A stretch of DNA of 62,299 nt, filler included, from Rhizaria sp. SCN 62-66 (Eukaryota), in assembly GCA_001724265.1 (NCBI GenBank). It is 5 parts of 5 records of this genome, joined end to end, with 100 filler letters (N's around TTAATTAATTAA, not from the genome) between each part and the next. Parts side by side here need not be neighbours in the genome. Positions count along the whole stretch, not along the records: positions 32,879 to 53,064 come from MEDY01000581.1; 4 more parts are not named here. One strand, 5' to 3'. A program made the translations under genes and the position numbers. Numbering within the stretch: position 1 is the first letter of the stretch; every line of letters starts with the position of its first letter. Under the pieces are notes generated by a model. It was given only the letters and a program-made list of their open reading frames with translations. It ran no database searches and was not told the DNA's origin. Shown here in pieces: positions 4,301-59,810 of this stretch.

Positions 4301-7300
4301 CTGAGCAATCACCGTTGCCACCGGTCCCCAGAAGTTTAAGTTCTCTTCTTTGCTCAGCGTGTGGGTGACTAGCTGGCTCTGGCGAAAATAGACGTATTCG
4401 CCTTCAACAGAGTACAATCCTTGCGTGCGAATAGTCTCAGTCGTTTGAAAATTATCAACCTGAAGGATGTCAGTGGCATTCTTTCGGAACCATCCCTTCC
4501 TGATACGGTACGTCACATCGCTGTGCGTTAGAACTTTATTGCTAGTGTGGCATGGCATCATTTGTGCAGAGGCAACAAGCTGTCCCATCTCAGGAGGGGG
4601 TGCTGCTAGTGGCACGAACGAGTCTCCTTGACGGCGGGACGCGAGGAAATCGCACTGTACCTGGTTCAGACTCAATCCTGGGACGACTGCGACTGAAATA
4701 GGGACGGCCAGAGTCGTAGTGAGTTTTCCCACGACAGTGTTACGATATGGCGCACCGGAACCGCCATTATAAAGGCGGTCACCTCCACTCGCTGTGATCT
4801 GTCCACCAAGTTTGTTGTACCATTTGATCGCCGTCATCTGGTTACCGTTAATGTCAGTCCACAAATAAGGGTCGGAGATGCCGCGCCGACCGCCGAAGGC
4901 AACGGAGGCATCAATGGGACCGATAGAAATACCGATAAAAACGTTTTTTCCCTGTTCATTAACCGTGAAAACACCTATCAGCAGCGTTCCAGTCGAATAA
5001 ATGAATAAACCGTGATGAGATATCTGGAAAGCAATACGCATGTCAAACAAAGCAAAGTGCAGATATAAAACAAAAGAACAAGAAAGAAAATAGATGCTTG
5101 ATATCAAACGTACCAGAGCAAAATCGAATATTTGTTGACCTGCCACCGAGACTCGCGGAGACCAAAGGAAAAACAACTACGCTTGCCTGAGCAGTGGCCA
5201 CTCTCGCAAACACAATGGGTTGGTTGAAAAGGCCCGCACGGTAGAGTTGCGTTCCCCATGAGACTGAGGCAGAGATGGTACTTGCAAGAATGCGACTCGC
5301 AATATTAGACACCACATACGAAGCGACTCGCTGAGCAGCGCTGTGAGCAGCGGCACGGACATCGCCTTGGAGCAAAGCAAACGCACCGTCAACGCAAGCG
5401 TCTGTTGCAGCACTCCCGAGTCCAGATGAAAGCACAGAGGTGCTTTTTAGCCACGAAATCATCGTTTCACGAGCAATGACGTTGACAACCACTGATTTAG
5501 CAGCATTAAGCACGCTCACGCGACCATCAGCTGTAGAGATTATGTTGGAAAGGATCGTCGCTCCTCCTTGAACAGCACCATTCCAGAGCTGGTTGGTGAG
5601 GTGAGGACTCAGCTTGACTTCGACATTCGGAGAGGAAAGACCCCCACGGGACCCAATTGTGCGTGTGGTTGTAATATCGAGAAAAGGTGTGCTAGTAATC
5701 TCAGTCTTGCGTGTGTGAAGCGATGCAGCTGAGTTTGCTACAATGTCATTCAGTGACGAGCCTGAAGCACCAGAAGCAGACACATTGGTGACTGTGTCTG
5801 TCCGTCGCCTGTGAAACAAGGAATAGACGCTGGCGGTCATTCTTTGCTGCAGCTCAGCTTCCATTGTGCCTTGACTGCTTACACTCGTAGACATAATGCC
5901 AGTGTCTACGTCGAAAGCATCAGTTTGTGTGCGCGTGCCACGCTCCACAGTAACTCCGCCAAACGCCTCGGCATAGTTGAACCCGAAAATTGGAATGTAC
6001 TCCATATCGTTCGCCTGCTCAGCAACATGACGGGCGCCAGCAGTAGAATAGGTCGGAATAACACCATCAAGTAAGCGAGGTCGGGCAGCTGCAGCGACAG
6101 GATCAGTCGTCGAGTAAAACCCGCGATGCGATGTCACCTCCGTGTAGCGTCCTTGCCAGTCACACGAAAAACGGTTTGGCAATAACAGTCCGCGACGATC
6201 GCCCCAGTACACCCCTCTTCTCTCGACGTTGAGTCCGTGACGATCAACACCATTGGCTTGGTACGTTTGATAGAAGCGCTCTTGCGTTGCCACGGACCAC
6301 TCTTGGGAAGCGTCGCTGAGCAGCGCCGGGAAAGAAGGTAGTTGAGATGGAGGAGCGGTCACAACAGCAGCCATGCTTGCCACAGTGACGTTGGGCATTG
6401 GAATCGGCGGCGAATGGGAGGGGTCAATCAGCCCGTGCGCGTGAAAAGTGCCAGTGGCAGTGGTGCGAAAGAGAGTTGTTAGACCCTCACGGCCCGTCAT
6501 ATAAGCAGATTCAATCGAAGACACCGCTCCGTTGAGCAACAAAACTGAAGGTGATCCATCTGAATTTTGGTAGATACTTTGGTTTCCGACGCGAAAGTGA
6601 GAATGCGTGTTCAACGCTCCCTCCGTGCCGGTGTTGACGCCAGAAACTTGTACGACTTGAGAGAGGGAGTGCATGCTGAGCGCGCCACCAGGAGCAGCAT
6701 CAGCGTGCGTCACAAGACCGACATTTGAGTTAAATACCCCCATGAGCACAGATACAGCACTGCCATCCCGGTGCGTGTGCCTCGCCTGTGCATCCGCTTC
6801 ATAAACTCCAGGAGCACGGGACGCAGCACTATCAAAGTTGCCCGTCGCAACTGGTTTGGTTGTGCTTCGAGTCACAGAAGCAGAACCACCAATCCATGTT
6901 GCGAGATAAACATCCGACTACGACCTAGCGCCAGCAACGCCCGTAACTCTCTCAGCGAGGGTGGCGCCAGGTGGAAGCGACAAGGAGGGGTGGCGGGGAT
7001 GACGCTGTTGTTCAGAGCTACAGTCGCGTGACCAGAAACGGGAGCGCATGGGGCGAAGACTGCCAGTGGTATTAGCTTGATCTCTGCGCAGGACAGCCTC
7101 GGCTGCCCTCTGTCGCAGTTGTGGGACGCGAAGCGAAGTCTCAGTCTGTAACCTGTTGACATCAAAATTGGACGTGGCTACGTGCAAGACGTGAGGGTTG
7201 GACAATCCAAGCCGCCTGAGTGCCGCCACGTCTTGCGTCGCGTCCATCGCTGAAGTACGACGGAGAGTGAAGACAGGGCCGCTCATGCTCTCCAGGGTGG

Positions 7301-8114
7301 TGGAAGATGAGTAGTTGCGGAGAGAAGAACGACAAGAAGGGAATCCTGACATATTATATTCGGTCATTGATTTGTGAAGAGGAAACACGTTAATTCTGTT
7401 TCCGATGCCTTGAAAGACAAACTGTCCATTTGTGACCGCGCGTTCAGAGGTGGAGATAACGAATCTTCCCCGTCTTGCTTGAGATTGACTCGACTCTTCG
7501 TATGAGCCAGCTCCAGCTCCTGCCAGAAACGATTTCATAAAGGAAAATGTCACTGAAAGCCCCTGGGCCTGCGCATCCGTCGCTGTCGACGAAAGAAGAT
7601 AGGCTGAGCTTGGTGCGACGGTGTTGATACCAGCATACTCCACCCCGACTGTCCAGTTCGGGTCGGGATTGGTGGCCAGGTAGTTATAGGGATTTTTTTG
7701 GCGATCCATCGAGAAAAGCATGCCTCGACCAGAGAAAGACCCGTTAACGTAGTCAACGGCGCGTGGGACGACAAGATGGGAGTCTACGACGAATGGGAGG
7801 CCGTATCGTTGAGCGGAAACGGTGAGTGCAAAAGAAAGTCCTTTGTCAAACAAATGAGGATCACTGCGAGCAAAGTCAGTAGCAGCCCTATAGGCGTGAC
7901 GTAGCGCATGAAGCTGCTGAGTCTTGCCTGACATATGTGCAGCGAAGTCGAGTGCCATGGTGTTTCGTTGAGTGTCAAGAGAGTGGCGAAGGTGGTCGTT
8001 GATGTCACCATGCTCAGCCAGGGGGTCATATCGCCTACTCGCGTAGTAGTCGATGGTTCCATCAACGATAACTGGGGTCAAGACGCGGTTGACGCCATCC
8101 ACCAGGGAGTTCAT
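1333..8114 (-). CDS. Giant orphan protein (~2,170 aa), 2 introns, one in-frame TAG; Ser/Thr-rich regions plus hydrophobic helical blocks
   Basis: ORFs 6918-8114 and 5043-6875 share a frame and are separated only by TAG 6918-6920. Introns GTACGT..CAG 5113-5024 and GTACGT..TAG 4153-3997; the second joins …EALQW|GGRYIYIAG… in phase into ORF 1333-3903. One unexplained frameshift near 5115-5180. Ends TGA. Confidence 0.65.
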
Positions 8115-8591
8115 GTGAAAAATGACTCGACAATTGTAAGTGGCGACGTCGACACTACGAGAGAAGAAAAAGCGGCAAATTTCGCAAGATATAACAGTTT
8201 CCTTGTCAGATCAATGGCTATTCGTATGTTGAAAACGGAGTTAAAATGCGAGTATGCATCAGAATCAGCCATAATTCATGTCAAAAGCAGGAAATTGAAG
8301 TAGATATTAAATGACACATCGCTGCAAGGAGACTGCCTCTGACAATGGGAAAAACAGCAGCCCCGGGATAGAGTATTCACAATTGGTGGGTCATATAAGT
8401 GGAATGTAAAATGCAAATCCTCAACATATAATACTAATATTTGGGCATTCGCTCATGGATCAAGCCAATTACCAATCGGTCCCATCTTAGTTGGCAACGC
8501 GGTCTGCATCTGCATACTGGGAGCTGACCCTTAGAGCCAGTTTGGATTCTTAGACTGTCTTCACTGAGTGCCTGGCAAGCAGCTGGACCGA

Positions 8592-11271: not shown

Positions 11272-11856
11272 TTTGACCCGTGCCTGCTTTCGATCAAAAG
11301 GAGATGCGCCAGGCGCAGTAGAACGAGTGTAAGAGACATGTAATTGGCAAGACAAAAAGAAAAGAACCTTTTCTATCTCTATTCAAATAACAAACGGCAT
11401 TTCTGCGAAGGGGCATGACACGCAATTCGAGATAGAATCGGCGCACAAAGCGACGTGGAACCTCAACTCTCAAGGAGAGGGCGCGCCAAGGAGGGTTGCT
11501 AGTCAAATCTTCGCACAGCACGCCGACACGCGGCGCTACTCAGGTTTTCATACGATAAAACTATGTATTCATGAAATAATATAGGATAGCTAATACCAAA
11601 ACAATATTATTATTCGAATTAAAGCAACATATCCCGGCCAACGACTCGAGTTCGTCAAGTCCGTCATACAACAATCAGTCTCTGGAAGCCACGTCAAGGG
11701 CCTCGACAGCATACGCATCTGCTCTTAACGAGTCAGGGCTATCATAAAACGTGCAAGTGCGTCCTGCAAGCGAGATATCATGGGGACGGTCCCACTGCGC
11801 CTCGTCTTCCTCTGGCTCGACACTCCACATTGCTGTCTGACTCACATTCGCAGCGC

Positions 11857-24025: not shown

Positions 24026-24294
24026 GGAGGTCGTTGGGTGCCGTTTCTCTGTGGATTTCCTGTGAGAGAGTCCCTTTATGTAAAATTTCGTGCGTAACAT
24101 TACCGCTCCGACTGAAATGTGTAGTTTCCAACCGCTTGTTGCAAATAGTGATTTTACGTATTTGAGTAACGATGCACGGAGTGTATTATCGTGAATCTAT
24201 CTTCTTGGCCGCGTTCTCATTCCTGCCTTCAAATGCCATTCTCTGCTCCTCCATGCCTCCCCATCGTTTTGTATCTCGCAACGTAGCACTTGCT

Positions 24295-27200
24295 ATGATT
24301 GCACGCCCTTACTGCAGATTGCAGTTTTTGTTTGTGCTTGTGGCCTGTGCACTTGCGAGTGTCTTGGCGGCTCCCACCACGTTGTTTAGTGGCGTCTCTG
24401 TCGCGCCACTCAAGTCGCCTGACAACCGCATTGACGTCGGCTTTCTTATCTCTTGGACAGACTTTGAGAACCCGGATAAGAATAAGATCACTTCTTTGTT
24501 TAAGGTTCTTCAGACGTCTTCTGGTGCGCCTGTCATTGGCGCTGTTCAATATGCTGGCTTTGCTGACAACGTCGTCATTCCCGGCATTACTTTTAGCGCC
24601 TCGGCCATTAATAGTACTGGCCTGAGTGTGTCTGTTGCCATCTCTACTGCCGTATTCCCAGTTTCGGGCTCGATCGCCGTTGTCGCACCGTACGTGGCTT
24701 CCTCGCAGTTCCCATTTGCCGCTAGCTGTGGTTCCTCGGCTGTGTTTGCACTCTCTTCCGCCGACGATACGATTTTGTCTCTGGAGGGCTCTCTTACAGT
24801 GACGCGCAATATCCCGCCTTGCCAGACGGACAAGACTGTGCTCCAGACACCGACCTTCAGCGCTTCAGCCGGCACAGAGTACTCTTCGTTGCTGGGCGTG
24901 ACGTCGTGGCTGAGGTTCAACGCCGTCCACCTCCCTCCTGCGCCCAACAACGGCGGCGCGCGCCGCCTCGCCTTCGCTCTCTATCCCTGGTACCCGCGCC
25001 CCGCGGTGCCGGTCATCACCGGCATGTCCGCCGTCCCTGTGTCTGTGGGCTCTAACGCCACGCTGACGGCCAGCGTCACCGCGGCCGGCGCGATCGAGTT
25101 CTGGCTCTAGGGCAACACCAGCGGCTCTACCACTGACTCCTTCACCTATTTCCACTTCAACGTCACGTCGTTGACTGAGCAGTGCGGGTCCGTCACCAAC
25201 TACGCCTTTGGCATCCCCGCCAGCATGACTTCGCTGACGCTGGACGAGTCCGTGCAGCCGAACCTCAACTACCACCCCGTCGGCACCACACGCCAGGTTA
25301 CGAACGGTGCGTGCCCGCCGCGCTTCACCGGCGTCTCGCTCAACGCCGAGCGCGTGGGCACCAACGTCAGCGACGACACCAAGGCGCACAACAAGCTTGT
25401 CATTGCGTGGGACGGCTACACCAACCCTTCGGGCTCGCTTAAGGGCGGCAACACGACCGGCGGCTTCGAGGTGGTGCTCCTCAACCTCACGTCGGCTCCC
25501 GCCTCGCACCCGCTGAAGGACATCATCATGTACAACTATGCGACTGTGTGGGTCAACGACGTGCAGTACGCGACCTCGCTGTCGGACAACGTGCTCAACA
25601 CGACTTATACTAGCGGCATCACTGATACGGCCTCGGGCAAGATCGACATCAGCTTCTCCAGCCGCATCACCGCGTGCGGGACGTCCATGACGCTGGAGCT
25701 GAGCCCGACATACAGCGCCCAGTTCATGAAAAACTTGGCTCAGATGGACCCTCTCAACCCCACCTCGCTCATCGTTGTGTTCAAGCTCACCGAGGACTGC
25801 AAGCCGCCAATCACCGTCGGCGACGTTGCACTCACGCTCGTTGACGACTCGGCGGCATTCATCTACGCCAGCCACTACGCCAACATCGCATTTGACAGCA
25901 TCACTAACCTGCCTGCGGGCATCACCACGTCGGAGCTCAACTCATTCCTCACACTCACGCTTGTCACCGAAGCCTCCAGCGCCAGTCTGTCGCTAATCAT
26001 GGCGTCCCCGCCGGTGTGGGTCACTGCCAAAGGCACCATCGTTGACGACGTCGTCATCACCATTTCCTACGGGTTCATCCCCGACATGTACACGCTCACG
26101 GCCAGCTCGCGCTCCAACAGCTCGCTGCCCACCGCGGGCGCCATCCGCTTCCCGCTGGCCTTCGTAACGCCCGTGCCCTGCGGCAATACCGTACAGGTGA
26201 TCGTCAGCGCCGGCACCACGACGGCGAACCCCGGGTACGCGATCACCACCAAGTCGGGCGCCTCGCTCTCCGCTACTTCGGACCCGCTGCGGTGCCCAGC
26301 GGAGTTCACTGATGTGTCTGTGGCGTCAGCCGACATCCAGTCGAATAAGATGATCAAGCTGTCGTGGACGGGCTATACTAACGCCGCCGGCGCTGCACTC
26401 AGCAACGCCTTTATTTTCCGCCCTATGCAGAACTCGGCGCAGAGCCCGTCGCTGATTGACTCCGTGCCGACCGACCCCGTAGCCGTGACCAACACCAGCG
26501 GCGTCGCTGTGCAGGGCGTGACCGCGACCGTGGTGTACATTGCCGCCAGCAACTTACTCGTCGTCTCGCTCGCAGGCCCCGCTACCAGCGTCCCCGCCGC
26601 TGGCGCGCTTGCTTTTACGCCCGTGTACAAGGCCGACTCTTTATGCGATGCGTTGGGCTTCTCTTACAACGTCACTGCTTGTTCGCCGTATGTGCGTCAG
26701 GCGCCCAAGTCGGTGGCGGCGATTATTTTCCCGCGCCCTTGCGCATCTGTGAAGTTGACACTGGGGAGCGAGACGACTTCGCATGCGGCAGTCACTTCGA
26801 AACCCAATGGTGTGTACACCATCTCCGTCAAGTGGTCCGAGCTCAACACCGCCACGCCTATTACTACGCTGTTCACGCTCGTTGCCCCCGACTCCAACCC
26901 GCAGTGGCTGCACTCGGATGTCGTCGCCACCGTCCAGGCCCTCGGCCCCGCGGGCTCCCCGCTCCCCGGGGTGACAATTTTTGCTGACGTAATGCCGTCG
27001 TCGCGCAGCGTCGCCGTCTCCTTCAACATCTCCTCCTTGCAGCCCGCTGAGGGCACGCTGGTGCTCACGCTGAGCAACCTGCTTATTACATACATGTGCG
27101 CCGCTACGGCGCTCACGCCCTCGCCACGCGTTCTCACGCTCTCGGCGCCCGCGACGCTGAAATTTAATGCTGGCAGCATCAACTCCGTTTCTTTGCCTTA

Positions 27201-29805
27201 CGACCGCTGCAACGCCACGTGGGTGTGCACGGATAACCGTGTGCCGTGCAACGTCGAGGTCGAGACCCACTACGCCACCACCTGTCCCACCAACTGCGGC
27301 GAGACTAAGCGCAAGCTCAACGTCCACGGCTGCGCCAACACGTTCCAGGGCTTCGACGCCGGCAACGCCACCGCCGACGTCTGCGGCGCTGAGCTCACGA
27401 ACACGCGCGACTGCTTCGACTGGACCTGTCCCGACGCTATGTGGCTGTGCCGCGCGAACAGCGCGACCGCCTGGCTCAAGTGCGAGGCCGAAACGGGCTT
27501 CACGACATGCGAGACCAAGAACGGCTGTTACACTGGCGTAACCCGCACCCGCGACCTAAAGTGCGTGCCGCATCAGAACGACGACACCGATCTCGGTCAG
27601 CACTGTCCGGCGACGGTTCAGGCGAAGAAGCCTGAGGCAAGCAGCAAGTGCGCGGACAAGATCGACCGCTGCGCGGCCAAGGACTCCAAAGCCCCCGAGT
27701 GCTACCTCGACGGCAGCGATACTAAGGCGTACTGCTCTAACGCGGCCAGCAAGGCGTATCGCACCGCGGCGTGCTGGGACTCGGCCGCCAACGCGGCCGC
27801 CGACTCGACTGCGCTGTGCGCTGCGGCAAACGTCACGCTCAAGACCGAGTGCTCGACGCTGCCCGCGTCGTGCTCGGCGACTCTGGGCTGGCTGTCGACC
27901 GACGGCGCGTGCCTGACGGCAGACGTGGCGGCCCTGTGCGCGTCCGTGCAGCCTCTGAACGTGGGGTGTGGTTACTACAACGCCAACAACACGCTTGTCT
28001 CTACGCTCGAGTACGTCTGCACTGACAAGCTTGCCTCCCAGACGCCCAAGCCGCAGGACTGGAAGATGTGCTCCCAGCCCGCGGTGAAGTGCGATGCGGC
28101 GTACGGCACGTGCACTGTTGCCCAGACCGTGAGCACCGGCGATCGCTCGTGGTCGAACCTCGCTAAGTCATGCAACTGCCTCTACGGCTCCCACGGCGCC
28201 GCGTGTGGCACGCACGTGTCAATTACAAACGTCACCGTCGCTAAGGACGCTGCTGCCACGGGCGAGGACCTCGGCTTCTTCTACAAGGCGACATGGACAG
28301 TGGTTAACAACAACGAGTACCGCGCCAAGTTTACTCTCATAAGGTCGACTTCGAACGAACGCATCGTGCTCTCTGAGCGCACCGTCGCAGGCGGCTCATA
28401 CACTTTCAACCTGCTGGACACGGAGGGCGGCGCCGCGCCGGGTAACTACACGCTGGAGATCCGCATCAGCTCGCTCATCACGGTTGTGTCGCCCGCGTTT
28501 GTGGTGACGCTGATGTGTGATGGTCGCTGCAAAAACGGTGGGACATGCTCGGCCGTGACGGGCGTGTGCGCGTGCAAGGGCCAGTGGTCGGGCGCGTTTT
28601 GCGACATCAGCCCCTGCGACACAGCCGGCTGCAGCGCCATCGGCACTCAGATCGAGAACCCCTGCACCGTGGTCAACGACCGCGCCAAGTGCAACTGCCT
28701 CACTAACGACGCTGATGATGCCTCGCTGTTCCAGGACGACAAGTGTGTTGTGCCCGTGTCCGGCTGCAGCGTGAAGTGCGCCAACGGTGGCAAACCCTCA
28801 GCCACGGTCGTCAACGGCACCGTGACATGCTCCGGCAAGTGCGATTGCGGCGCTGCGGCGGCGCTCTACAACGGCAACTTATGCGACGTGTGCATCAACC
28901 CGTGCGCGGCCGCTGGCGTGCTCCCCAACGGCGGCTCCGTGTGCGGCAAGTGCGTTTGCAAGGCCGGACACTCGGGCAAGCTCTGCGGCTGCCGCCACGC
29001 CACGCTCACGCTCTTGTTCAAGCCTTCCGCGAGCGTGGCGTGGTACTTTGACGACGCTGATGTCACGCGCGAGGACCGTCTGCCCGTGTTCATGTCGGAG
29101 CTCGAGAGCGATCTTGTTACCGTTTTTGCCGTTCCCGGCGTCTACGCCACTGTTGCTTCGCACGTGCGCGGCACCATCCGCGATTCTGTTGCCGGCGACA
29201 AGGCTATGCGCGTTATCGTCCGTGTCGGTCCTAGCTGTGCTGAGGACCAGCCCGCCTCTGTCGCTACATACCCTATCTTTGACGCCGCACTGGCTTCTTT
29301 CGCTGCGCAGTCCACCGGCTTCTCCGCCGCAGGCTTCTCGCTGCTGTCCACGGACATGATGTCGACGTACACCGCGCTGAACAATCTCAACATCGCCGTG
29401 TTGGCCTCCCTCGAAGACCCGACCTCGTCCACGCTCGGCAGCGCACTGTCTGCGAGCGAGAGCAATAGCTACGCCATCGCTGACGAGGGCTGCACCGCGG
29501 ACTGCGGCGCCGTCGTGCCTCAGGGCACGGGCATCCCGGACTTCGTGCCCGAGGGTGATGATGGCGGCGACGAGCCTGACTCGGAGCCTGACTCGTCCTC
29601 GGGGCTCACGGAGAAGATCATCGTCGGCGTCGTCGTTGGCGGTGGCTGTCTGCTGATCATCATCCTCATCGTCGTCCTCTGCAAGTGCGGCTGCTGCGCC
29701 GGCTGCTGCGGCAGCTCGCCCAGCTCGTCTGGCGCTGGGTACAATGAGAAGGGAACAGGAAACAACGTCGAGATGACTGCCTCGGGCTCTAACTACGAAG
29801 TGTAA
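24295..29805 (+). CDS. Type I cell-surface protein (~1,836 aa) with signal peptide, beta-rich domains, TSP1-like and EGF-like repeats, TM helix and Cys-rich cytoplasmic tail; one in-frame TAG
   Basis: Signal-like LQFLFVLVACALASVLAA, EGF CKNGGTCSAVTGVCACKGQWSGAFC, TM IIVGVVVGGGCLLIIILIVVL followed by CKCGCCAGCC. ORFs 24172-25110 and 25171-29805 share a frame and are separated only by TAG 25108-25110. Ends TAA. Confidence 0.85.
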
Positions 29806-34199: not shown

Positions 34200-36008
34200 A
34201 TGGCGACGCGTGAGGAGCACGTTCGCTCTCTGGAGCACATCAACGCTCGCCTCATCGAGGTCAGTAAGGCTTTAAGGACCGATGACAAAGAGCACTTCGC
34301 GATCATCCAGGCGAAGCTGGACAAACTTGATCTGGAGAAGGACCTCCTCGAGGCCAAGATTGATGTCCACGACAAGGTGGACGGGGCTCAGGAGCGGGTT
34401 ACTCGCTCCCAAGAAGCCCTCGACGCCTTCAAGCGCTCTGCGGCGGCACCACCTGTCGGTACGTTTCTGTTTGCTGCTTGCTGTTGCTCTTTGCTGTTGC
34501 TCTGTTGCCGTGCTTGTTTGACTGCTGTTTAGTATTGTTGGCTCACCTTTCTCTCTCTCTCTCACACACACTCACTTAGCGATGACGCCGTACGAGACAA
34601 CACTGCTCACGACGCTCGCTCAAGTTGCGACGGCACCGGCGCCTGACTTGCACATCCCCGAGCAGACGGTCGTGCTGAGCGCTGCTACCCCGTCAGTGCA
34701 AGCCAGCGGCGTCACCGGTTTCGTCCCTTTTTACGGAGCGGTGCGCACCTTCCTCGCCACCCAGGTCTCGCTTGAGGATACTGAAAACCAGTTGATTTAC
34801 CGCAACGACTCGTGGAACGCTGTCGTGCTCGCGGTCGCCAACGAGCCAACGAAGCCCCTTTACCGTTTGGTGCGCAACTCCCAATCGGCCACGTCGCAGC
34901 ACGGCGCATCAACCTTCAATCCTCAGTCCCGCCCCGATCCGAGGAAAAGGCCGCTGACGGCATCTTGGAGGCGGTCAAAGACATCACCGACAAGTTTTGG
35001 TTTGGCCCATTTTTCCAAGATTGCGTCGACGGCGTGTTGGGCGTGGCCTTTGATGCCAGGACTCTCCATCTCTACCAGCTCATTGGCAAAACACAATAGC
35101 TCATCGCTACGGCTGACCTGACGACGGACGATGGCAAGGCCAAGGCGCTGAAGCTGGCCGTGAACGTGGGCCGCTGGCTCCGCCACGTCCGCGAGGAGCA
35201 GCTTGTTGGCAAGTGGAAGAGGTGTATCGATGTGGGTGACCACTCTATCGAGTTGTCGTCCAAGGGCGCGGTCAAGCGGCTACCCCTCGAGCCCAACCAG
35301 GTCGACTGGATGCACCAGGTCTATCACAGCGATATTCCCTGCAGGGAGAGTCTGGAAGGGGACATCATGAAAGTCGCGGGCGGCAAATACGAGATGACCC
35401 TCTTACCCATCGGCATGCCGCTGGACGAGCTACTCAGCCGCGGTAAGGTGACCGACCCGATGCCCGTGCTGAAGGCCATTCTCTCGTTCTTCGTGGGGCT
35501 GCACGCGATTGGCTTCGTGTATATCGATCTGCGCCCGTCCAACGTCATTCGCGCTAACGAGGGCTACCTCGTCATCGACCTCGAGTTTGTGCGCCCCGTG
35601 AACGAGGCTGTGCCCGCCAACCTCAAGTGCCGAAGCGTACTGGAGAAGGCGCAATTCCCGAAGATGGGCATGACGGCGTCGACGTGCATGGACTTGGTGA
35701 TGCTGCACGAGCTCATGGTCACCTGCGGGTGGACCAACTAGCAGGATCCCCACTACGGTGCGCTTCTCGCGTACCTCGCGCAGGTCCGTCCCGCGACGGG
35801 GCACACGGCCAGCACGGCGCTCGACATCCTCAACACCCCCGTGAAGCAGGTGTTGCAGCCTGCGAAGAAGTCGAGGACACATCCTCAACACCGCCACGAA
35901 GCAGGTGTCGCAGCCTGCGAAGAAGTTGAGGGCGACGAAGATGTAGCGCTAATAATAGACGAACAGCAAGACAATCAAAAAGGTATGCAATCCTCAAAGG
36001 GCAAGTAA
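34200..36008 (+). CDS. Crinkler-like effector architecture: coiled-coil N-terminus, PD-(D/E)xK-like nuclease module, protein kinase-like domain; one frameshift, so possibly a pseudogene
   Basis: Intron 34459-34579 (GTACGT..TAG). SRPD…EEK…AVKDITDKF motif with a frameshift near 34935. Kinase motifs LHAIGFVYIDLRPSNVI and YLVIDLEF. In-frame TAG at 35097-35099 and 35739-35741. Confidence 0.7.
35825..35932 (+). repeat. Imperfect tandem duplication (~55-bp unit x2)
   Basis: acatcctcaacacc…gaagcaggtgt..cagcctgcgaagaagt.gagg occurs twice in succession. Confidence 0.85.
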
Positions 36009-41333: not shown

Positions 41334-42614
41334 TTACATGTGCATGTACATGAGATTGCGCGCGCCGACGTCGAGGTTCACCACGAGCGTGGGATCATTA
41401 TGCTGCTCGCGTAGACGCTGCCGAGCCTCCGCTCCGGCAATCGCTTCTTCCGCTGCAGTCGCAGCATCAGCGTTGCCAAAGTCCTCAGCGCTGGCATCGT
41501 GACCGCGCGCAGCCACCCTGAACTTAGCGTTCTCGGTGGTCTGTATGGCCACCTGGTCGAACGTGCTGTTCCACGCTGGCATGGCACCAGTCTCCATCAC
41601 CAGCAAACCATCGTGTCCGCGCTCTGCCGCCGCAGTGCGGCCCGGAGCGACCTGGACAGCGTGCCTGCGACGGGCGTCACTCACGCGTTGCGCGTCGCTC
41701 TTGGCTGACATGAAGTCGGCCTCAGCAATAACCGCTTGGGTGGAGGCAACATTTCGACGATCGAGCGCGAGTTTCTTCTCGCGGAGCTGGTTTTGGCGCC
41801 ACTTGCGCATGATCTGCGGGACGTCATGGCCAAGAATGTAGGCCTCACGCAGACGCACGCGTAACGGTGCTAAGCTCATCTCCTCGCGCTGCAGCACGAT
41901 AAACGCGATGACAACGACGACGAAGAAAAGGATGACAAGCACGCAGATAAGTACAGTGGCGACAACCTTGGCCGAGTGCGAGAGCGTGTCGACGAAGAGG
42001 AAGTTGGCCAAGAAGAAGATCATGAACGACGTGCCCAGCGATAGGAACTCGACAGCGCCCGGAACGCGATTCTCGAACGGCTGGCCAAAGATCTGCAGCA
42101 AGATGCACACGAAGATCAACAGTGATGCAAGCAAGAGCTGAGTGTGCAGCGCACCGGGGAAGAAGACGGAAATGGCGACAAGCGCAGCCTTGCGAAACAT
42201 CTCATTGAGGAACCAATAGTAACGTGTGGGCTTGTAACCGCGGTACAGGAAGGCTATCTGCGATTCGAAGTTCTTCTTCTGCGCGCGCGTGATGTCAGAG
42301 GTGCCAGTAGCCGGTGCCTGGATAAGTGCGCGGTTACGGTATAAAATAGCCCACGCGAACAGCGGAATGCCGACGACCCAGAGGATAAACATCGGCACGC
42401 CAAGGACCAAGATAAACATGATGTGTTGGGAGGAGTAGCAGGGCTCGCTGAGGTCGCCGAGCATGAAGCTGGCGCCAGGGTCACCACCAATACTCTTGCA
42501 GGAAGCAACTGACAGGGAGAGGACGGACTTCACAGCGGCCGATGAAACAGAGGCAGACGTTAACACGAAAATGAAGATGCACAACATCGCCAAGAGCTGA
42601 AGCAGGGACAACAT
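41334..42614 (-). CDS. C-terminal multi-pass membrane domain of a protist Cys-rich receptor-like protein (5' part missing or displaced)
   Basis: DLSEPCYSSQH…GVPMFILWVVGIP…FLYRGYKPTRYYWFLNEMFRKAALVAISVF…QPF is typical of the TM module downstream of GCC2/GCC3 (ephrin-receptor-like) repeats. Ends TAA. Confidence 0.75.
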   Translation of the reverse strand: MLSLLQLLAMLCIFIFVLTSASVSSAAVKSVLSLSVASCKSIGGDPGASFMLGDLSEPCYSSQHIMFILVLGVPMFILWVVGIPLFAWAILYRNRALIQAPATGTSDITRAQKKNFESQIAFLYRGYKPTRYYWFLNEMFRKAALVAISVFFPGALHTQLLLASLLIFVCILLQIFGQPFENRVPGAVEFLSLGTSFMIFFLANFLFVDTLSHSAKVVATVLICVLVILFFVVVVIAFIVLQREEMSLAPLRVRLREAYILGHDVPQIMRKWRQNQLREKKLALDRRNVASTQAVIAEADFMSAKSDAQRVSDARRRHAVQVAPGRTAAAERGHDGLLVMETGAMPAWNSTFDQVAIQTTENAKFRVAARGHDASAEDFGNADAATAAEEAIAGAEARQRLREQHNDPTLVVNLDVGARNLMYMHM

Positions 42615-43799: not shown

Positions 43800-46700
43800 C
43801 TTATTTATCCTGATTTGCATGGACAGGTGCTTGCATACTGACAGTGCTGAACATGCGCGCGACATGCATGTGCGATGAGTGTACGGGGGAGTTCATACCG
43901 CCATGCCTCTGAGCAAGACTGCCGGGAGAGGTCAGCCGTCCGGGGGTGCATATTTGGGAGTTTGGCGTTGCAGGGGAGTTGCGAAGCGACTGGTAATAGT
44001 GCAGGTGCAAATGAAGTGGAACTATTTTATGCGGATGCGAGCCCTGGTGTGTCGCCAATTGCTGGTGCAGGTACTGGATGTGCGTCTGTTGGAGCGGAGA
44101 ACAATCAAGTGTCGCAGACGGCGAGGTAAGCGGGTGCCGCCGAGTGAATGACCAACCAAGACCCCCAGATGTGGCATTCATACGACGAACCAAAAGTGGA
44201 CTACCTGCAGAAGTCAAACGGTTGAGCAAGCATTTGCTGCTTTTGCAGCAGTTGCTGTGAATTGTGGTTTTGCAGTGTTGCCGCGATCCGCGTCGCTGCC
44301 GTATCAGCAACAGCCAATGACGGCAAAGCGGCGGTGGAACCATCGACCCAAGGTACGTCGGCGCCTAATTTGAGCAAGATGCTTTCTTCTCAGCAAGACG
44401 GCAGTATCCCATGTTTGATGATGCGCATGCATTTGCTGCAGAGGGACAACTTCACCCCCCAAGGGCAGCATGGCGCTGGCCATGGACGTATTGAATGGTG
44501 GGTTGGTCAGTAGAGCTGTTATGGATGTCGTTGGTCTCGTGGGAGCCGTAGCGATCAGACATTGGGTGATAGAAATGCTATGTAGCGAAGTTCCCCGTGT
44601 TTGGCATACTTTCGTTGCCATTAACGATAGCACCGGGGCACCACGCAGCAGCATGCATGAAACCAGTCATATTATGCACATCGTCAGAGGATAAGCCGAG
44701 TGGTTTGGCGACAGTGGATATCGGAGCCAAATCGGGAGGTGAGAAGTCGCTGATTGAGTCAGTTGGGGATCCCGGTTTGGAATAGCAAAACACAAAAGCA
44801 AAAATACAAACAAACAAAAAAAGACGGGAGGGGAGTCACACATGCAGCACAGGTGGGTCAGTTTAACACGAATTTGAGGAAGGATCACCGATTCACCGCT
44901 AAAACAGTTGTGTGTGCGTATTGCTTCTTTTGTCTGTGTGTGCGTGATATATTTACGACTACAACCCAATGGACTAACAAACGCACAGATTAATATCCGC
45001 ACATTGAACAAATTACAGTTTCACATTTAATCAATGATACAAAAATGAACAGGTGTATGATAGGCATACGAGCCCGGGAAGATGCCGCAAGGATGCACAG
45101 CCGGTGACAAATGCAGTAATTTGCCCAAGCGTCTCCTGTCACTGGCACTGGGGGCAGCTGGAAGTGGCAACGACGCTGACAACATGATACGAGGGCCAGG
45201 ACTGAGACTGGCCGAAAGACTTCGCTTCGCAGGCAACGAAGGGGACACCTGAGACTGCGACTGCACCAGCAACTGTGCATCGGGTTCCAAACAAAGCTAC
45301 TGGCGTTATAACCTGGCATCGCAATGTGAGGCGCATCGCCAGCGCCGCTGCTGTGCGAAGGAACAGAGACTGCATGCTGCATGCCATTACCAAGCGGCCT
45401 GTCACGGCTGTTGGCATTGGTAGCAATGGCGTTGCTGCGATTACGGCCCTGGACGTCGCTGTCACGTCCTTGTTACGGCATCATGAGCTGCCCATGATCT
45501 TGACTTTGTCGCCGTTGATCCGGCATGTATCGTTGCTGTTGTTGTTGCTGTTGTTGTAGATGCTGCTGCTGTTGCTATTCTTGCTGGTATTGTTGTGACT
45601 GCAGCTGCAACAAGGGTTGTGCCTGGGAGGGCGTTGGCAGCTGCACTCCAATGCAGGCATAGCGTGCATCGGCAAAAGTTGACAAGGGTCCCGGGCCTGT
45701 GAGAAACTTGTCCAGCCCACTTACACAGGACTGATAATCAACCCGCGCACTCAACTGGCTACTGGAGGTAATGCTGTCTCTTGACACCAAAATGTCGGGG
45801 AAACTTGCCTGTGAGCTGAAAGGAGAAATGTAGTGGTTGTTGCTCATCGTTGTCGTCAATACCTGCGGTGACAAACAGCCTTGCTCTTGTTGTTGAGAAG
45901 ATATCATGCCCAAATGGTGAGCCGTAACCCCGTGCGCTTCCAAGGACGGCAAAACAGGATACCTTGAGGGAACTGTCTTCACTGGTCCCAACTTTGGTGA
46001 TGCTGTGACCACGCTATCATAACTGCAGCTGGAGTGATCGTGCCCGCACGCAGTGCACCTGCCACCCCGAGCACAGGTCTTTAATTTGCGCGGAGGCGAG
46101 GACGAAAGTTGGCTGAATACGGTCAGATTCGGGGTCTCAACGACAACGGCAGGGCCGACGTCGCGTGCGGGAGCCATGGCTGCCTTCCGCCGAGCGGCTG
46201 CCTCAGCTACCGGCGGCGCGGCTGAGGATGCGGATGAGTCGCCCGACGTGACGTTTGACGAAGCAGCAGCGGAAACAGCATGGGGTGTTGACTGCCGACA
46301 AAGATCCACATGCAACGTACAAGCTTTCACTGAGGAGTGAGCCTCACATAGAGCTGCAGGCGCAGCCAATATGCTGCAGCTGCAACAGTCACTGACGTTC
46401 TGAACAGAATCATCGCAGTTAGGGGCGAAAGGAGCAGCCGGCATTACCGGCGGGTTGGCATAGAGTTTGCTTATCCATGGGTGCCAGCGTAACATCACCA
46501 CCAACACGTCACCGCGTACGGGGTCAAACATGAGGCCGAACGACTGTGGCACGCAAAGACAGTGTGGGGCAGATGACATCGCACGACGGGCTGGCGTACC
46601 AGCCTCTGGCACATTTGGATTATTTGCGGATCGGAGAGACGGGATGGACTGAAAGAGAGCATGTACAAGTAGGCTGGCTTTCGGTCAAATTTCTCGGCTG

Positions 46701-49700
46701 AGACATAACGTTGCTGTCCACAGAGACCTTGAGCCCGCCAGAGCGGGCAACATCCACAGCGGCCTCACGCATTTCGCGCAGCACATCGCGCATCGGAGGA
46801 TACATGGATTTGCGCAGAGGCGTTACCTCGGAATAATCACGTACATGTACACGTATATCGTCATCACCCGTAGAATTCATGCCTTCGATGCGAAGGTTAG
46901 AGTTCGAGCTTAGCGCGGAGATCTAAGTGAAAAATCGAGCAGCAGCCGCCGCACCTCGTGCGGATAGCGCCGGCAAAATGCGAGGAACGCGTTGGACTGA
47001 TATCCACGTTCGTCACTCGCATCGGAACCCATCTCATTGAATAGTGCGTGCTTAAATGGTGCATGTTGCGATACATCTGCTTTGGAAGAGCTATCAGTGC
47101 AGCCAAAGCCCACAGAATTATTTGCCAAGACGGCAGAGTCATCAAGGATGGGGCAAGTACAGGGAGAGAGAAGGAGAATAAAGGGGTTCGCCTTGGGGTC
47201 GAGGCGTGGCCTGTCCTCACCTGGTGGAGCAAACACAGAATCAGATTCCAAATGCGAGTCTGCACAATTTCCGAACACAGTGTCAACAGCTCGGGCCTCT
47301 GGACACACACGAGGACTGCTGGCAACAATGGGACCCACCGGATGGTTCCAGCTAAGTTTCCCATTCATATGGGGGGCATCAACCGGCACCGCCGTCATTG
47401 CTGCGACTGGCTCGACCGCTGTATTCTCTTGTGCAATCATCCCAGATCCGATTCGAGTCGTACCCGGCTTGGCGCCCATCGTAGTTTGTGACGAACCTGT
47501 CGAAGTGGTGTTTGCGTAAATGTCCGTATCCTTGGGGTTGAGTGGCACACGCAGCCCTGCCAAGACATAAGCAACGGCATCCGGGCTGTTCGCCGCCCTA
47601 TGCAGGCCGGGACATCCACCAACCTCGGCCGCTGTTCCGGAACTATTCATTGAGACTGGTTCTGCGCCCATATCTTTCATTGTGGGATTCATAGCGGTGT
47701 TGGGAATTTTACCCACGCCTGAAATATTTAATGTAGCACTTTTGCGATTGTTGATCGAGTAAAGACAATCACACCCTTGAGTCGCACACGCAGAGTTGGA
47801 GACGCAGCAGTGCGTGACATTTTTGAACGCGCCTCCGAGACCGTGAACCTTCACGTCGCCATCAGGAATATGACTGGACGAAGTTGCCGGCGAAAGCGCG
47901 CACTGCGTGCGAGTGTAGTGATTCGCACGACTCAGAGTGTGCGTCGCGCTGTCGATGTCAAGGAGTGAACTTGCCATGGGAATTAGATGCGCTCGGACAA
48001 CGGGACGAGCGGCCGCCGACTTCACTGTGGCAGGATCCGAAGGAGACTACGACGGCATAAATATCATTGATGCTGTAGCCGACGCTGTCGCTGAAGAGGA
48101 ACTGTTGGACATTTGGCGCAACACTGTCGGGACAGCTCCCACGAGGCTCTGGCAGGAGATAAAGCAAGGCATCGGCGCAGCGATTGGCGGCGTGACAAAA
48201 GTGCATTCTGACGAGACTACGTCGCTGCTGTTATTTCCACCAGTGCAACCTCCATTCAGATCGCCATCGCTGGGGTCGTCACCACGGCACGCTTGGTCGA
48301 GCTTGAAACTCTCCCAGCTGACATCACTTTCGCTCCTATAGCCTCCGTCATTGCCGCTCTCATCCGCATAATCATCACTTGCGGTACTAGACTAGTGCGC
48401 CGCCGCTCTGTTAGGGGAACACTTGGTGATTACGCCGGACAAGTGATGCAAGTTCCGTGTGCTAATACTTCCATCATGAGCAAGGGCGCCAACATGGACT
48501 CCCAAGCCATCGCGATGCAGGGATTGCATGCCCACATTCGCGAAAAAGTTGGCAACACTCCCCGATGACAATGCTCTGTTGAGGGTCGCAACAGCCAATG
48601 AGGGCAATCGTGTCGCAGATGAAGGCTGCGCTCCGATGAGAAAGCTATTCACGATCTTGGGCAAGACACCGTCTGGTCGCTTGCGATTTGAAGGGGACGT
48701 CGGTGGGGGCCCGCCTAAGGCCTCCCTATGCGCAACGCCCCCTGTACTAGAGCCAGAAGTTGCCATAGTGCGTAAGCCAACGCACATGCCACTCCGCTGC
48801 GAGGTGGCGCCAACGACATGACGGAAGGGTGTACGAGCCGCTGCACTGCGGCCAGAAGACGCAGACAGAGGCAGGCACAATGTTGCTGCTGCGCCTGGTC
48901 CCTGGCCCTGCAGACGGGGATGGCATGTGCCATGAGAAATTGCATCGCGAGCGTGCGAAGTTATCGGCCCTGAAGTCGTCAGAGTTGTGCTGAGACCACC
49001 ATGGCGGCTGTGCACTCGAGAACCGACGGCAGGGCCCGACAACAACGTTAGCGGGTCACCCTTGCTCGCATCTGTCGTGGACGCGTGACTTGAAGTCACC
49101 ATACGGGAGGAAATCACTGCTGTTCGAGGGCCAACTTCACAAGGTGATGTTGGTTCGCGATGGTCCAGCTTGAAGGTATCAGTCACCTGCTGTTCCGCCG
49201 CCCTCGCTTGTGAATACGGCACATTTATGGTGCTGTGATTAGATGTTGCTGCGGCAGCAATGGCATCGGACACCCCCGTAAATTGGCCGATCAAGGAGCC
49301 GGTGATGGTTGCATTGGTGTTGAGAGTGGCAGTGCAGCCCGCCAACGGAGGAACTGGCGGAGGCGGAAGCGGCGTCAGCTGCGTTTGCTGCGACTGGCGC
49401 GCCTCCCCAGCCAGGCCCGACCCACTAGCTGCCCGATTCACTGTCGCATGCTGAGGAGGAATGCCCAAACAGCACAAGGAGGCGACAGAAGAGAGGGGCA
49501 TTGGCGCAACAGGGGCAAGTCCAAGAGCCTCTAGCATTCGGTACGTGACTAGTTGGCCGTGGAGTCCTTGTAGGGCCAGGGCAGCTGCCGCCGCAGCGAG
49601 GCGTTCTGGCACGGCACTGCCTTTACCGTGGACGCCACCTGCCACATTGGCGTCATCAGTGGCGTCCGCGTTTATGTAAAGGCTGTGCAAAGCTCCGCAC

Positions 49701-50539
49701 CTGTAGTGATGAATGCCCTTCGAAGACGGAGTGGCCGCAACAGCGGCGGCGGACGTTAACCGAGAGCAAATGACGCCACCGGCAGCTGAACACACTTTAC
49801 ACAGCTCAGCATGGAGGCAGCCGTGTGCATCGACCTCAGCGTCGTTCCGGCCGCAGCAAAGCAAGTGTGGCGACATCCTTTCTGCCGCAGCCACTGCAGC
49901 GGCCGCAACAGCAACCTCCGCGTCCGTGACCACTCCGGCGACCGCCGTGGCGGCTGCAACGGCGCGCGCGACTTTGCGCGCATGTGACTCGAACAACACA
50001 CAAAGGCGCGCCTTGAGAACAGCATCTCCTGATGGCCGTCGGGGTTCTTTCTAGCCTACCGGGTATCCACGCGCGTCCAGAACCGAGCCGTAAAACTGAG
50101 GGAGGCTGCCCGAACGCGGGCATACGTCAGTTGGAAGCGGATCTGACTCGGAGGGTGGGACTGTGGAGGTTAGCGGCTGCGTCGCCTGAGTCGCTGTAAA
50201 AAAGCTGTTGGGGCGACGGATTGGGAAGCGTGGAGGAACGGAGCTGCCGGGAGAAACAGCAGTGAGTTTGAATGCTGGAAGTGCCGACGGGGTCATGACA
50301 ACGGGGTTGCTCAGGACATCATCGTTTTCGTCCTCACCAGTGCCGTCGTAATTCAATACCTCCGAAGGTCCACGATTTCTTGCTGCACGCATCTCTGCTG
50401 CACACATTCTGCATGGCTCGCGTGTGTGCGCCGATATCTCGCTTGGGAACATGATCGCTGGGATTATGGAGGTAGGGGTCTTTGCGTGATTGTGCAACCG
50501 CGTCGAAAAATATGCCAACAGCCTCGCTAGTCTCAGCAT
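43800..50539 (-). CDS. Long low-complexity (Ser/Ala/Pro/Gln-rich) gene of unknown function; 3' part fragmented
   Basis: 50539-46910 is one frame of ~1,210 codons broken only by TAG at 50051, 48392 and 48047. The same frame resumes at ~46680 with TAG at 45575 inside poly-Gln. Further frameshifts or introns lie below 45300, so the 3' boundary is approximate. Confidence 0.55.
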
Positions 50540-51159
50540 GACCTGGTAATTGCTCTGAAAGTGCGTGAGTCTTGCTGAGAGTGAACCGATGATTGTGCTA
50601 ATTTTTCATTGGCACCTCAGTCATGGGCGCCTATGCACCCATACGACGGGCACAAGGATCGCCCGCTGTGAACACAAAATGAGAGCTGCTCAGGTCATCA
50701 CCGGTGAAGTGGCGCTGATCAGCGAAGCGCCTGCGGGAGCAGTTGCGACTGTGGGGTGGCGCGGTTGCTGCAGTAGCACTAGGCTCATCGCCTTTCGCGA
50801 GCACGCTGTTTGGCATGGGGGCAGCAGCATGTCGGAATGTGATGTGCCTTGATGAATTATGATGCGGCATGTTGTCATATTCACCGACGACAGAGACTGG
50901 CTGCGCGCGGAGATTGTTGCGGCCAACTTTTGTCTGTACGCAACCCATTTCAAAGTCACCAAACACAAAACGACCACGCGGCCGATCTGTATCATCAAAC
51001 AGGGCCTTGACAGCAAGTGCCAAAGCATTCCGACGCGCATCATCAGCTGGGACGTTTGCGCTCACACGGACAGGAAATGAGAATCGAATGACACTTGTTA
51101 AGTTCTTAAACGTGACCGATGGCGAGTAGTAGTCGAGCGACATCACATTGTAGACAGTT

Positions 51160-57148: not shown

Positions 57149-57989
57149 GCAGACGAAAGGAGTATTCAGACGAGTTCTCGCTCAGAAAAAGCGAATTACT
57201 ACCGCCAACTTTTTTTTTTTCCAACAATAGTTTATTGATGAGCGCGACATTCCTATATTATCCTGTCTGTGTCATGTGAAGACTCCACGAAGCGGCATGT
57301 TGAGGTCAAGACTTGCATGGACGGCGAGATGGTGTTTAAGGAGCGTCTGTGACACAAGATCAAGACACGCAAGATATAATTAAGAATACAAGCATAAGTC
57401 TTCATATAGATACACATATCTTCACCTAAGTGCATCTGACGATCAGGAAATTGCGGTACAGCGAGTATTTTTCCGGCGATGGCACGAGGATCCAGCTCCT
57501 TAATTAAAGATGCTTCTGTGATGTTGCCATGGCACAACCCGAGGTTTCGACCTTTATTATCGCACAAAACGCAATTATTGTATACGATTGAAAAATATTG
57601 TAGCTTGCAATCGTGTTCTTCTGTGCGAACTCACACCATGTTCGTGCTAGCGAGATATGGTGGAGAGGAGAGACTCCAACAGCAGCTTCTTACGCTCAAA
57701 CGGCATATGATTGACTTGACGGAGGTCTTTGCTATGGTTTATAGCTTGATTGCATGACATTAATTATTATATCTACTACTCGCTTCTCATGGTCGACATC
57801 GTAGGTAGCAGAGTCGCTGTCTCAAATATCCTACCTTACCATCATCCTATCCTTCGCCTTTCGTCATATTTTTATCCACATGTGTCATTTAAATGTATAT
57901 GCGACTGTACAATAGCACTCCAGTTTGAAACAATAAGGACTTGGTTAAGAGGTCACTGACGTATTACAACGTATAACGCGTTTTCAGAG

Positions 57990-59810
57990 ATGCTTCCGTT
58001 TAACTACGTCAAATTTTTCGAAGCACTCGCGGCTCTTATTTCTCCCGCATCATCCGTTGACGGAGTACAAGCTCTGAGGAGGATTACTGCGATCGAAGAC
58101 TACGATTTAAAAACTCTCACGGTAGCATGTCTTGACCACGGCGTATTCGACTGGCTTTTGCGGTCACTCGAGTACTGCGGAGACGCGGACGAACCTGAGC
58201 GAACAAAGGAGACTCTCTGGATATTCACGAATCTCGCCGTTACGTCCGAGGGCTGCACCGTGCTGCTTGAGCGCGGCGTTGCCGAGAAGCTCTGCTGCGT
58301 GCTCCACCTTGGCCAGCCCGACGACATCGTCGAGAACGCCCTCTGGGCGCTGGGCAATATCGCCGGCGAGGGCCGCGCAGCCGTTGAGTCGCTCATCGAG
58401 CGCGGGGTCTTCGCACACGTCTGCCGCTACATGACTGAAGTGTACCAGGCAAGCGGCCAGGTCAAGGTCGCGGTGCACAAGATCCTCGCTTGGACGATGT
58501 CCAACTTCCTCCGCGTGAAGCCCCCGCTGCCGTACAACATGACTGCGCCAGTGCTGCCGCTGCTCGCCTACGCGCTGCGCAGCTTCGCTCCCTTCCCGGG
58601 TCTCGAGGAAGTTGTCGTCGACACGCTGTGGTCGCTGTCATACGTCTTCCGCGAAGAGAGCGAGGGTGTGCGTTTCGAAGACCTGGTCGGCGGCGGTGAG
58701 ACGAGCGTCCTGTACTCTGTGCTGGAGCAGCTACACACCAGCCGCATGACGCGCACGCCCGCGCTGCGCGTGCTCGGCAACGTCGCCGCGCTCGACCGCG
58801 GCATCCCCGCGCAGGTCTTCACGGCGCCCGTGCTGGGGCACCTGCAGCGCCTCGCCGCAGGGTTGGGCTACAACGACACGAACGCCTTCAAGGAGCTGCT
58901 GTGGACGCTGTCTAACGTGCTGTCTGAGGGCCCCGAGGTGACGCAGCGCGTACTCGAGGTGAACCTGCTGCAGACGCTTGTCCCGCGCGTGCCCGTGCCG
59001 ACGCGCGACCGCAGCACCGCGACGCGCCTGTGGCAGATCGCCTCCGAACTCTCATACGTGCTGCGGAGCGCGCTGGCGGAAGACAACACGGGCGAGGGCG
59101 GCGCCGCGGTCGTCGCGCTGGCGCTGCTCGATGCGGGTGCGATGCGGTACTGCGCGCAGACGCTCGCTGTCGCCGCTCAGTTGACGGAGGTGTCGTCCCA
59201 CCAGACGCTGGGCCGGATCTTCAAGGCGGTCCGCGTCATGATCGAGTGCGGCGACACCGCGCCAGACCCCGCCGTGGTGACCGAGGGCTCGGCACCGCGC
59301 AACGAGTTCCTCGCGGCATTTTTTGCGGCACATGGCCAAGATGCGCTGGGGAAGCTGCTCGAGAACGAGAGCTTGAACTCCGTGGACGCCGCATACGAGG
59401 AAGCCATGGCGCTGAACAATCTTCTGGGCGACATTGTGGGAGACGTCGCTGCGACTTACTCGTCGGAGCCGAGCTCTGAGAACGAGGACTCCGACGAAGA
59501 CTCTGATGCATACGCGAGCGAAGACACCGATGACGGTGCTGAGGATGACGCGGGCGGGGATGCAACCGAGGGCAGCGATGACGACGTGGACGACGACGAT
59601 AGCGACGAGAGCGACTAGAACAGCAACGCGGCATCGGGCGGTGTGGATAGCCAGACTGAGCAGGCCGCCGAGGTGACGGCTGAGCAGGACAGCAGCGCGG
59701 GCAGTGATGGTGCTGCTGTTAATCCTGTTTCCATTGACGCTGTTGATGGTGGTGATGAGTCGCGCACGGCGAGCAACAAGGCGAACGCTGCACCGGATGT
59801 GCCCGAATGA
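57990..59810 (+). CDS. Importin-alpha-like ARM-repeat protein with long acidic tail (606 aa if TAG 59616 is sense)
   Basis: WxxxN ARM motifs LWIFTNLA, ALWALGNIAGE, AWTMSNFLR, DTLWSLSY, PALRVLGNVA, KELLWTLSNV. The acidic tail continues 63 codons past TAG 59616-59618 to TGA 59808-59810. Confidence 0.85.

Follow-up and report, generated by a model that had tools for sequence, protein, structure and literature searches.

Several nuclear codes in which UAG has become a sense codon are known. Those that reassign UAG alone are listed as giving Leu, Gln or Ser, and UAR is read as Glu in peritrichs (PMC11687900); the exLh and Iotanema codes are described in PMC5304391, a UAR = Glu code is found in Blastocrithidia (PMC12153298), and in Oligohymenophorea sp. 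PL0344 UAG as Glu occurs together with UAA as Lys (PMC10553269). No report of UAG as Glu with UAA and UGA both kept as stops was found in the literature searched, which consisted of main texts mostly outside subscription journals.

Here we consider a 62,299-nucleotide stretch of DNA (the window) from Rhizaria sp. SCN 62-66 (GCA_001724265.1), composed of five pieces with N-flanked TTAATTAATTAA linkers between them, and the genome from which it comes. The contig with the site under study (G000:C581) lies within a 34.9 Mb, 714-contig eukaryotic assembly. We propose, with a probability of about 0.68, that in this uncultured sludge protist UAG is decoded as glutamate through a tRNA(CUA) derived from tRNA-Glu, with an altered eRF1 predicted not to act on UAG and with TAA and TGA as stops.

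The likeness to the UAG-only codes lies in a sense UAG, a UAA stop and a tRNA(CUA), and the eRF1 change falls on the same residue as in Iotanema, T32G there and T32S here. The genomic marks of a UAG-only code, namely intact conserved genes with UAG, the stop usage, a tRNA(CUA) gene and altered eRF1 residues, are all present. The differences are three. The residue here is likely Glu, which does not figure among the UAG-only assignments that PMC11687900 lists; 78-91% of genes use UAG in the UAG-only ciliates, whereas here the codon makes up about 1 in 4,000; and TAA and TGA are both common stops. PL0344 also reads UAG as Glu via a tRNA(CUA) nearest to tRNA-Glu (69-93% there, against 64% here), but its UAA is reassigned too, while here TAA is the most frequent stop and is absent in frame from 134,119 codons. 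The UAR = Glu codes of peritrichs and Blastocrithidia share with the present case the capture of a stop by Glu; they reassign UAA and UAG, whereas here UAG alone is affected, and in a GC-rich genome. The case departs from each of the described variants: from that of Iotanema, Hartmannula and Trochilia (Gln) in a tRNA(CUA) that is not tRNA-Gln-derived, from that of Rhizaria sp. exLh and TARA ciliates (Leu) in UAG columns that do not favour Leu and a tRNA that is not Leu-type, and from the UAR = Glu codes and that of PL0344 in a UAA that is not sense here.

The starting point was the suggestion that a TAG within a poly-glutamine tract encodes Gln. The TAG is indeed there, at 45577-45575 of the minus strand, with the sequence and the peptide as quoted. 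The features of its host gene, which is broken, are as follows:

45575..45577, minus strand: TAG in the Gln-rich tract QQYQQE-TAG-QQQQHL, read directly from the sequence.
45473..46684, minus strand: frame holding this TAG, with an ATG at 46579 and a TAA at 45475-45473; 3′ part of the broken gene.
46600..46980, minus strand: segment between two frameshifts, still homologous to the paralog coding frame (tblastn frames 3, 2, 3).
46923..46925, minus strand: TAG within the frameshifted segment, facing Gln (CAG) in the alignment to the intact paralog.
46910..50605, minus strand: 5′ part of the broken gene, 1,232 codons with three in-frame TAGs (50053, 48394, 48049).
50051..50053, minus strand: TAG facing Gln (CAG) in the alignment to the intact paralog.

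The minus strand at the site reads ...CAG CAA GAA TAG CAA CAG CAG CAG CAT CTA CAA CAA CAG..., that is QLQSQQYQQE*QQQQHLQQQQQQQQRY, and the next in-frame stop is the TAA at 45475-45473, 33 codons on. The Gln frame joins an upstream 334-codon ORF without break and has the best coding score of the six (−74.5 against −121.8 or worse), yet it scores under background, and the two other minus-strand frames of the tract are likewise open, as poly-Ser/Asn and poly-Ala/Thr. The site is no assembly slip, since contigs of two runs span it, one from a run that is possibly the source sample (X1) with 0 differing letters and one from a different study (X4) with 3 differing letters in 4,404, their places unspecified. 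In ENA/Logan, predicted proteins terminate exactly at QQYQQE on 3 + 4 contigs; public gene callers cut the proteins of this organism short at TAG. None of the contigs of the one RNA run compared covers the site, and an Atlas search with its ORF gave a best match of 0.82 and none usable, and for the lineage, too, the Atlas held no match that could be used. Genome-wide, CAR-CAR-CAR-TAG-CAR-CAR occurs 277 times against 284 for the reversed control, so that the motif is no commoner than chance, because Ser, Asn and Ala repeats in other frames give identical letters.

The intact paralog, on contig C2 of the same genome, is a single frame of about 3,000 codons with blocks matching both window frames. 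The 45473..46684 frame corresponds to its C-terminal third, and the paralog runs past the TAA that closes it; the 46910..50605 frame is free of TAA and TGA until the first frameshift, in a T run near 46976, leads into a TAA, and the second frameshift lies near 46640-46600. Only the TAGs at 50053 and 46925 can be aligned to the paralog, the poly-Gln TAG itself being unalignable, and both face CAG. With the host gene twice frameshifted and the paralog carrying CAG at these two other TAGs, the poly-Gln TAG is most plausibly a CAG altered by C>T change in a gene copy under decay, the very possibility that the original prediction had entered as a caveat. The site is therefore weak evidence, with nothing firm to say on the encoded residue, and the claim that it points to Gln is not supported: a TAG within poly-Gln reports the origin of the codon and not its meaning. 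The paralog, otherwise open, has two in-frame TAGs of its own (C2:153711 and C2:153777), upstream of the block conserved with the window copy, and these do support read-through.

Four other TAG contexts quoted along with the site were all found in the window, at 59616, 35739, 48394 and 48049, two of them in the same broken gene and one in a multi-copy family. The further TAG-bearing frames of the window are:

24166..29805, plus strand: EGF-like surface-protein frame of 1,880 codons, whose single in-frame TAG, at 25108-25110, is flanked by coding-like sequence on either side.
57960..59810, plus strand: Armadillo-repeat frame, whose acidic tail contains an in-frame TAG (59616-59618) and remains coding-like up to a TGA.
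5043..8210, minus strand: frame of 1,056 codons, containing a single in-frame TAG at 6920-6918.
34785..36008, plus strand: frame of the multi-copy family, with TAGs at 35097 and 35739.

The TAG of the EGF-like frame is better evidence for read-through within the window than the poly-Gln site. Those of the 34785..36008 frame are weak evidence, because the frame belongs to a multi-copy family, whose summed contig depth reaches some 20-fold the depth of the single-copy part. Multi-copy families occupy 33764-39450, 41700-42400 and 51000-53000 of the window, with many divergent copies in the runs compared; they comprise PhoPQ-related, kinase-like and TIG/ephrin-like/Sushi surface proteins, and several copies look broken. 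At 10033-11382 of the minus strand, a gene of the P2X receptor family (PF00864, E 1.4e-19) terminates in TGA.

Stop-codon usage was followed over about 1.0 Mb, made of 214 loci and the window with overlaps de-duplicated, or about 3% of the genome, coding-like sequence being called by a self-trained coding model. In this sample, gene-end-like sites number 52/85 for TAA, 40/77 for TGA and 0/43 for TAG. After coding-like sequence, neither TAA nor TGA follows for 40 codons in 42/43 cases at TAG, 20/85 at TAA and 25/77 at TGA; after an open frame of at least 500 codons, 100 further open codons follow 15/20 TAGs, 4/41 TAAs and 10/62 TGAs. The codons that are confidently in frame, 134,119 in number, include 33 TAGs, 2 TGAs and no TAA. 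In this eukaryotic bin UAG is thus used like a sense codon, if a rare one, and TAA and TGA end the genes. At L118:1020-1025 two consecutive in-frame TAGs stand behind an acidic tract, with some 45 open codons from there to a TGA; this is a possible exception where TAG might terminate.

In-frame TAGs occur in eRF1, UBE2J1, a USP5-like gene, MLH1, CNOT9 and several kinases, and in the first five homologous or coding-like sequence flanks the TAG on both sides. On this evidence UAG very probably encodes an amino acid in this genome. Counts of Pfam matches with a lone TAG overstate recoding, because many of these TAGs are intron acceptors: the TAG was internal in 5 of the 14 matches inspected, and the other nine were dropped as evidence, eight having it at the match edge behind intron-like sequence and one within intron-like sequence. 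Searches of the DEAD, kinesin, PK_Tyr, two dynein domain, SNF2, UCH, ABC, AAA, TBC, myosin and MFS families yielded a single new internal site, that of the USP5-like gene. No read-through variant was seen in the clusters of 20 TAG-truncated proteins (12 found) or in the CNOT9 cluster, and a scan of metagenomes yielded a single contig, which was identical, and no close relative that included flanks. The L176 contig is genomic and contains introns.

Two components of the decoding apparatus bear on the identity of the residue:

G000:C84, L122:1489-1561, minus strand: tRNA(CUA) gene (Rfam 58 bits, ARAGORN).
G000:C63, L069:1111-1830, minus strand: eRF1 with an in-frame TAG in the N domain, at human position 107, from the sequence and a homolog alignment.

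The tRNA(CUA) gene came from a pattern search with 23 matches, one of which ARAGORN calls a tRNA with anticodon CUA; a T run lies downstream and host-type genes around it. Its nearest kin among the recovered tRNAs of the genome is tRNA-Glu(CUC), identical at 47 of 73 positions (64%). With both Glu tRNAs it has in common U1-A72, C2-G71, C3-G70 and a purine at 73, and it lacks both the GG start and the U73 end of the two Gln tRNAs. The acceptor stem and the T arm are those of Glu: the first 7 bases match the Glu tRNAs at 5 and the Gln tRNAs at 1, and the last 25 match them at 20-21 and 12-13, respectively. The short variable region is unlike that of a Leu-type tRNA. Judged by its sequence, the molecule is a tRNA-Glu derivative, and the identity elements, a check proposed with the original prediction, speak against the Gln reading. 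All 21 stem pairs are kept, five through two-sided and three through one-sided change, and such compensation suggests long selection on the structure. The loop carries A36-A37-A38, which we take to be the motif for isopentenylation, a modification that presumably aids the reading of codons starting with U.

The eRF1 search gave three matches, two of them Pelota-like, leaving one eRF1, whose in-frame TAG is identical in a JGI contig. Against 117 homologs the protein carries T32S (T in 117/117), G57S (G in 117/117) and T58K (T in 116/117). T32 forms a hydrogen bond with the G of UAG and is also altered in Iotanema (PMC5304391); T32A lowers release at UAA and UAG in vitro, and T58 shows RNA-induced shifts (PMC3384315). 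The literature search for T58K in eRF1 returned no report. The altered factor is predicted to have lost UAG recognition. Since its N domain holds an in-frame TAG, synthesis of eRF1 depends on read-through of UAG, and a feedback or autoregulation through this TAG is possible. The nearest relative (P0004, 84% identical) also has T58K, so the whole lineage may carry the code. USP5-like relatives, those behind P0248 and P0249, are 40-44% identical.

Homologs deep enough to give informative columns exist for three TAG sites. In eRF1 the TAG column of 117 homologs holds E 106, D 10, V 1 and Q 0; the single Val is that of the nearest relative, and the position is therefore relaxed in this lineage. 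In the USP5-like gene the column holds E 73 and Q 2 in 128 motif-anchored homologs of 148, E in 72 of 137 rows by phmmer, and E in both closest relatives. That of UBE2J1 (n = 120) holds D 51, N 31, H 15, S 13, E 3 and Q 0. Two of the three columns, which are drawn from about 3% of the genome and from family searches, are thus Glu-dominated and none Gln-dominated; enrichment in Glu is a result that the original prediction had counted as contrary to it. When the ordinary codons of the same three proteins are used as a calibration, columns with at least 50% E are found at 14/33 Glu and 2/30 Gln positions against 2/3 for TAG, and columns with at least 50% Q at 15/30 Gln positions against 0/3 for TAG. 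The pattern of these three sites is likelier for Glu than for Gln by roughly 90 times.

That UAG encodes Gln, as in Iotanema and Hartmannula, through a Gln-type tRNA(CUA) that the bin lacks or through the Glu-bodied tRNA charged with Gln, is nevertheless the alternative that survives best, although we regard it as unlikely. UAG-only Gln codes arose several times, according to PMC11687900. The shallower sites lean the same way: MLH1 (109.0 bits with Gln, 107.5 with Glu), CNOT9 (110.6 and 109.8, in an ambiguous register), the NEK-like kinase, where the TAG faces Gln in the best PDB match (NEK1), and a ubiquitin-like domain, where it faces Gln in 11 of 13 paralog hits; the two alignable window sites, with CAG in the paralog, do so as well. 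In favour of Glu, the TAG of the kinase L077 faces Asp in both close paralogs; that of a CAMK-like site faces Ala or Lys in the best PDB matches. Pfam bits summed by hand over 8 sites, with the first family for each, give Glu 597.8, Gln 596.2, Lys 595.7, Ser 590.8, Tyr 585.3 and Leu 583.8. Glu is ahead of Gln by just 1.6 bits and of Lys by 2.1, which leaves Glu and Gln unseparated, and Leu and Tyr are disfavoured, Leu standing 14 bits under Glu and being the top residue at only one of the 8 sites. The UCH Pfam score was rejected for comparing residues at the USP5 site, 3 of 4 variants falling under the threshold set. Of what had been predicted, UAG as a sense codon, a polar residue and the disfavour of Leu are upheld; Gln on the strength of the poly-Gln site is not.

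The neighbours of the TAGs are Gln-rich, which again would suit Gln: around the 33 in-frame TAGs Q makes up 11.6% and E 4.0%, unlike the neighbours of GAG/GAA in 1,000 of 1,000 resamplings. A mutational origin would also predict such neighbours. In a model with parameters assumed by us, in which each TAG comes from a codon one step away and transitions are favoured 3.5-fold, the density of the observed value is 0.03-0.18 under Glu and 0.10-0.21 under Gln, so that under this origin model, and only there, the neighbours would not discriminate. In poly-Gln contexts TAG takes 1 of 870 positions, below the 13 of GAG, which counts against Gln; the scarcity of TAG in acidic tracts, with 4 matches genome-wide against 14 for the control, counts against Glu. 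Against Gln stand also the deep columns set out above and the tRNA search, in which the pattern that a Gln(CUG)-derived tRNA(CUA) would fit returned, among its 23 matches, only the Glu-type gene and no Gln-type one; in that survey 63 of 506 Rfam candidates were scored, and the bin may miss tRNA genes. Weighing the columns, the tRNA, the context and the prior of Gln as the commoner outcome, we hold Glu to be the probable residue.

Ambiguous read-through, with a mixture of Glu and Gln at UAG or with Glu competing with residual termination, is more doubtful still. It would explain the rarity of UAG and its avoidance of conserved positions, and several observations agree with it: the columns are divided between Glu-like and Gln-like, among codons of the Glu or Gln class about 0.6% are TAG, no stop codon of any type occurs in several dynein heavy-chain frames 4,500-5,200 codons long, and just one tRNA(CUA) gene was found. 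However, a single tRNA normally carries a single amino acid, no gene-end-like TAG was seen among 43, and eRF1 itself requires read-through. Very improbable is the view that nothing is recoded, the TAGs being nonsense mutations in dead copies, intron acceptors or assembly errors and the tRNA a stray suppressor, which accords with the frameshifted host of the poly-Gln TAG and with the nine intron-associated Pfam matches, but not with the homologous or coding-like flanks in eRF1, UBE2J1, the USP5-like gene, MLH1 and CNOT9, with nonsense decay that would yield TAA also (in-frame TAA 0 against TAG 33), with TAG ending no gene, or with the recurrence of TAG sites across other assemblies.

For decoding as glutamate we propose the following course. 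Glutamyl-tRNA synthetase would charge the tRNA(CUA), eRF1 would no longer recognise UAG, and the residue inserted would be Glu, with TAG kept rare at about 1 in 4,000 codons. New TAGs would arise by two routes. Where Glu is constrained, GAG would turn into TAG without altering the residue; in Gln-rich or decaying sequence under loose constraint, CAG would often undergo C>T change. The second route would be the likely origin of the poly-Gln TAG.

The organism itself is recovered best from bioreactor or wastewater metagenomes; runs X5 and X6, with small shares, were left out of this habitat inference. Its genes are GC-rich and intron-poor, and it has dynein and kinesin sets of axonemal scale (12 DHC_N2 and 50 kinesin matches). 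Contig C706 (L147:1501-5945) carries an AT-rich 18S rRNA gene of 41% GC with four group I introns by Rfam, three or four of them in or beyond a 1.5 kb insertion. The first insertion is also long enough to hold an ORF, as is presumably typical of twin-ribozyme introns with a homing endonuclease, and a helix feature of this 18S is one we take to be heterolobosean-like; the rDNA may be mis-binned. Ubiquitin (L148-L155, L306-L310) is unusually divergent, with an MSMQIF start; it is found as scattered monomers, as L40 fusions and fused within a protein of 1,150+ aa; no polyubiquitin junction was recovered among these loci.

We lean towards the fuller picture of an unrecorded nuclear code in which UAG stands for Glu and both UAA and UGA remain stops. 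Its bearer, a wastewater protist that is GC-rich and does not resemble a ciliate, would combine a long-diverged Glu-derived suppressor tRNA with an eRF1 (T32S, G57S, T58K) that recognises UAA and UGA, leaves UAG unread and could itself be made only with UAG read-through. The single poly-Gln site is ordinary and misleading, yet it draws attention to a reassignment of UAG that is real and genome-wide, with glutamate as the most likely residue. Few codes treat UAG apart from UAA, and a Glu version, if true, would be an added assignment and the missing single step toward UAR = Glu. With a suppressor tRNA and a natural eRF1 variant together, the way in which eRF1 reads the third stop base would become directly testable, and an eRF1 predicted to tell UAG from UAA and UGA would be useful for amber-suppression engineering in eukaryotic cells.
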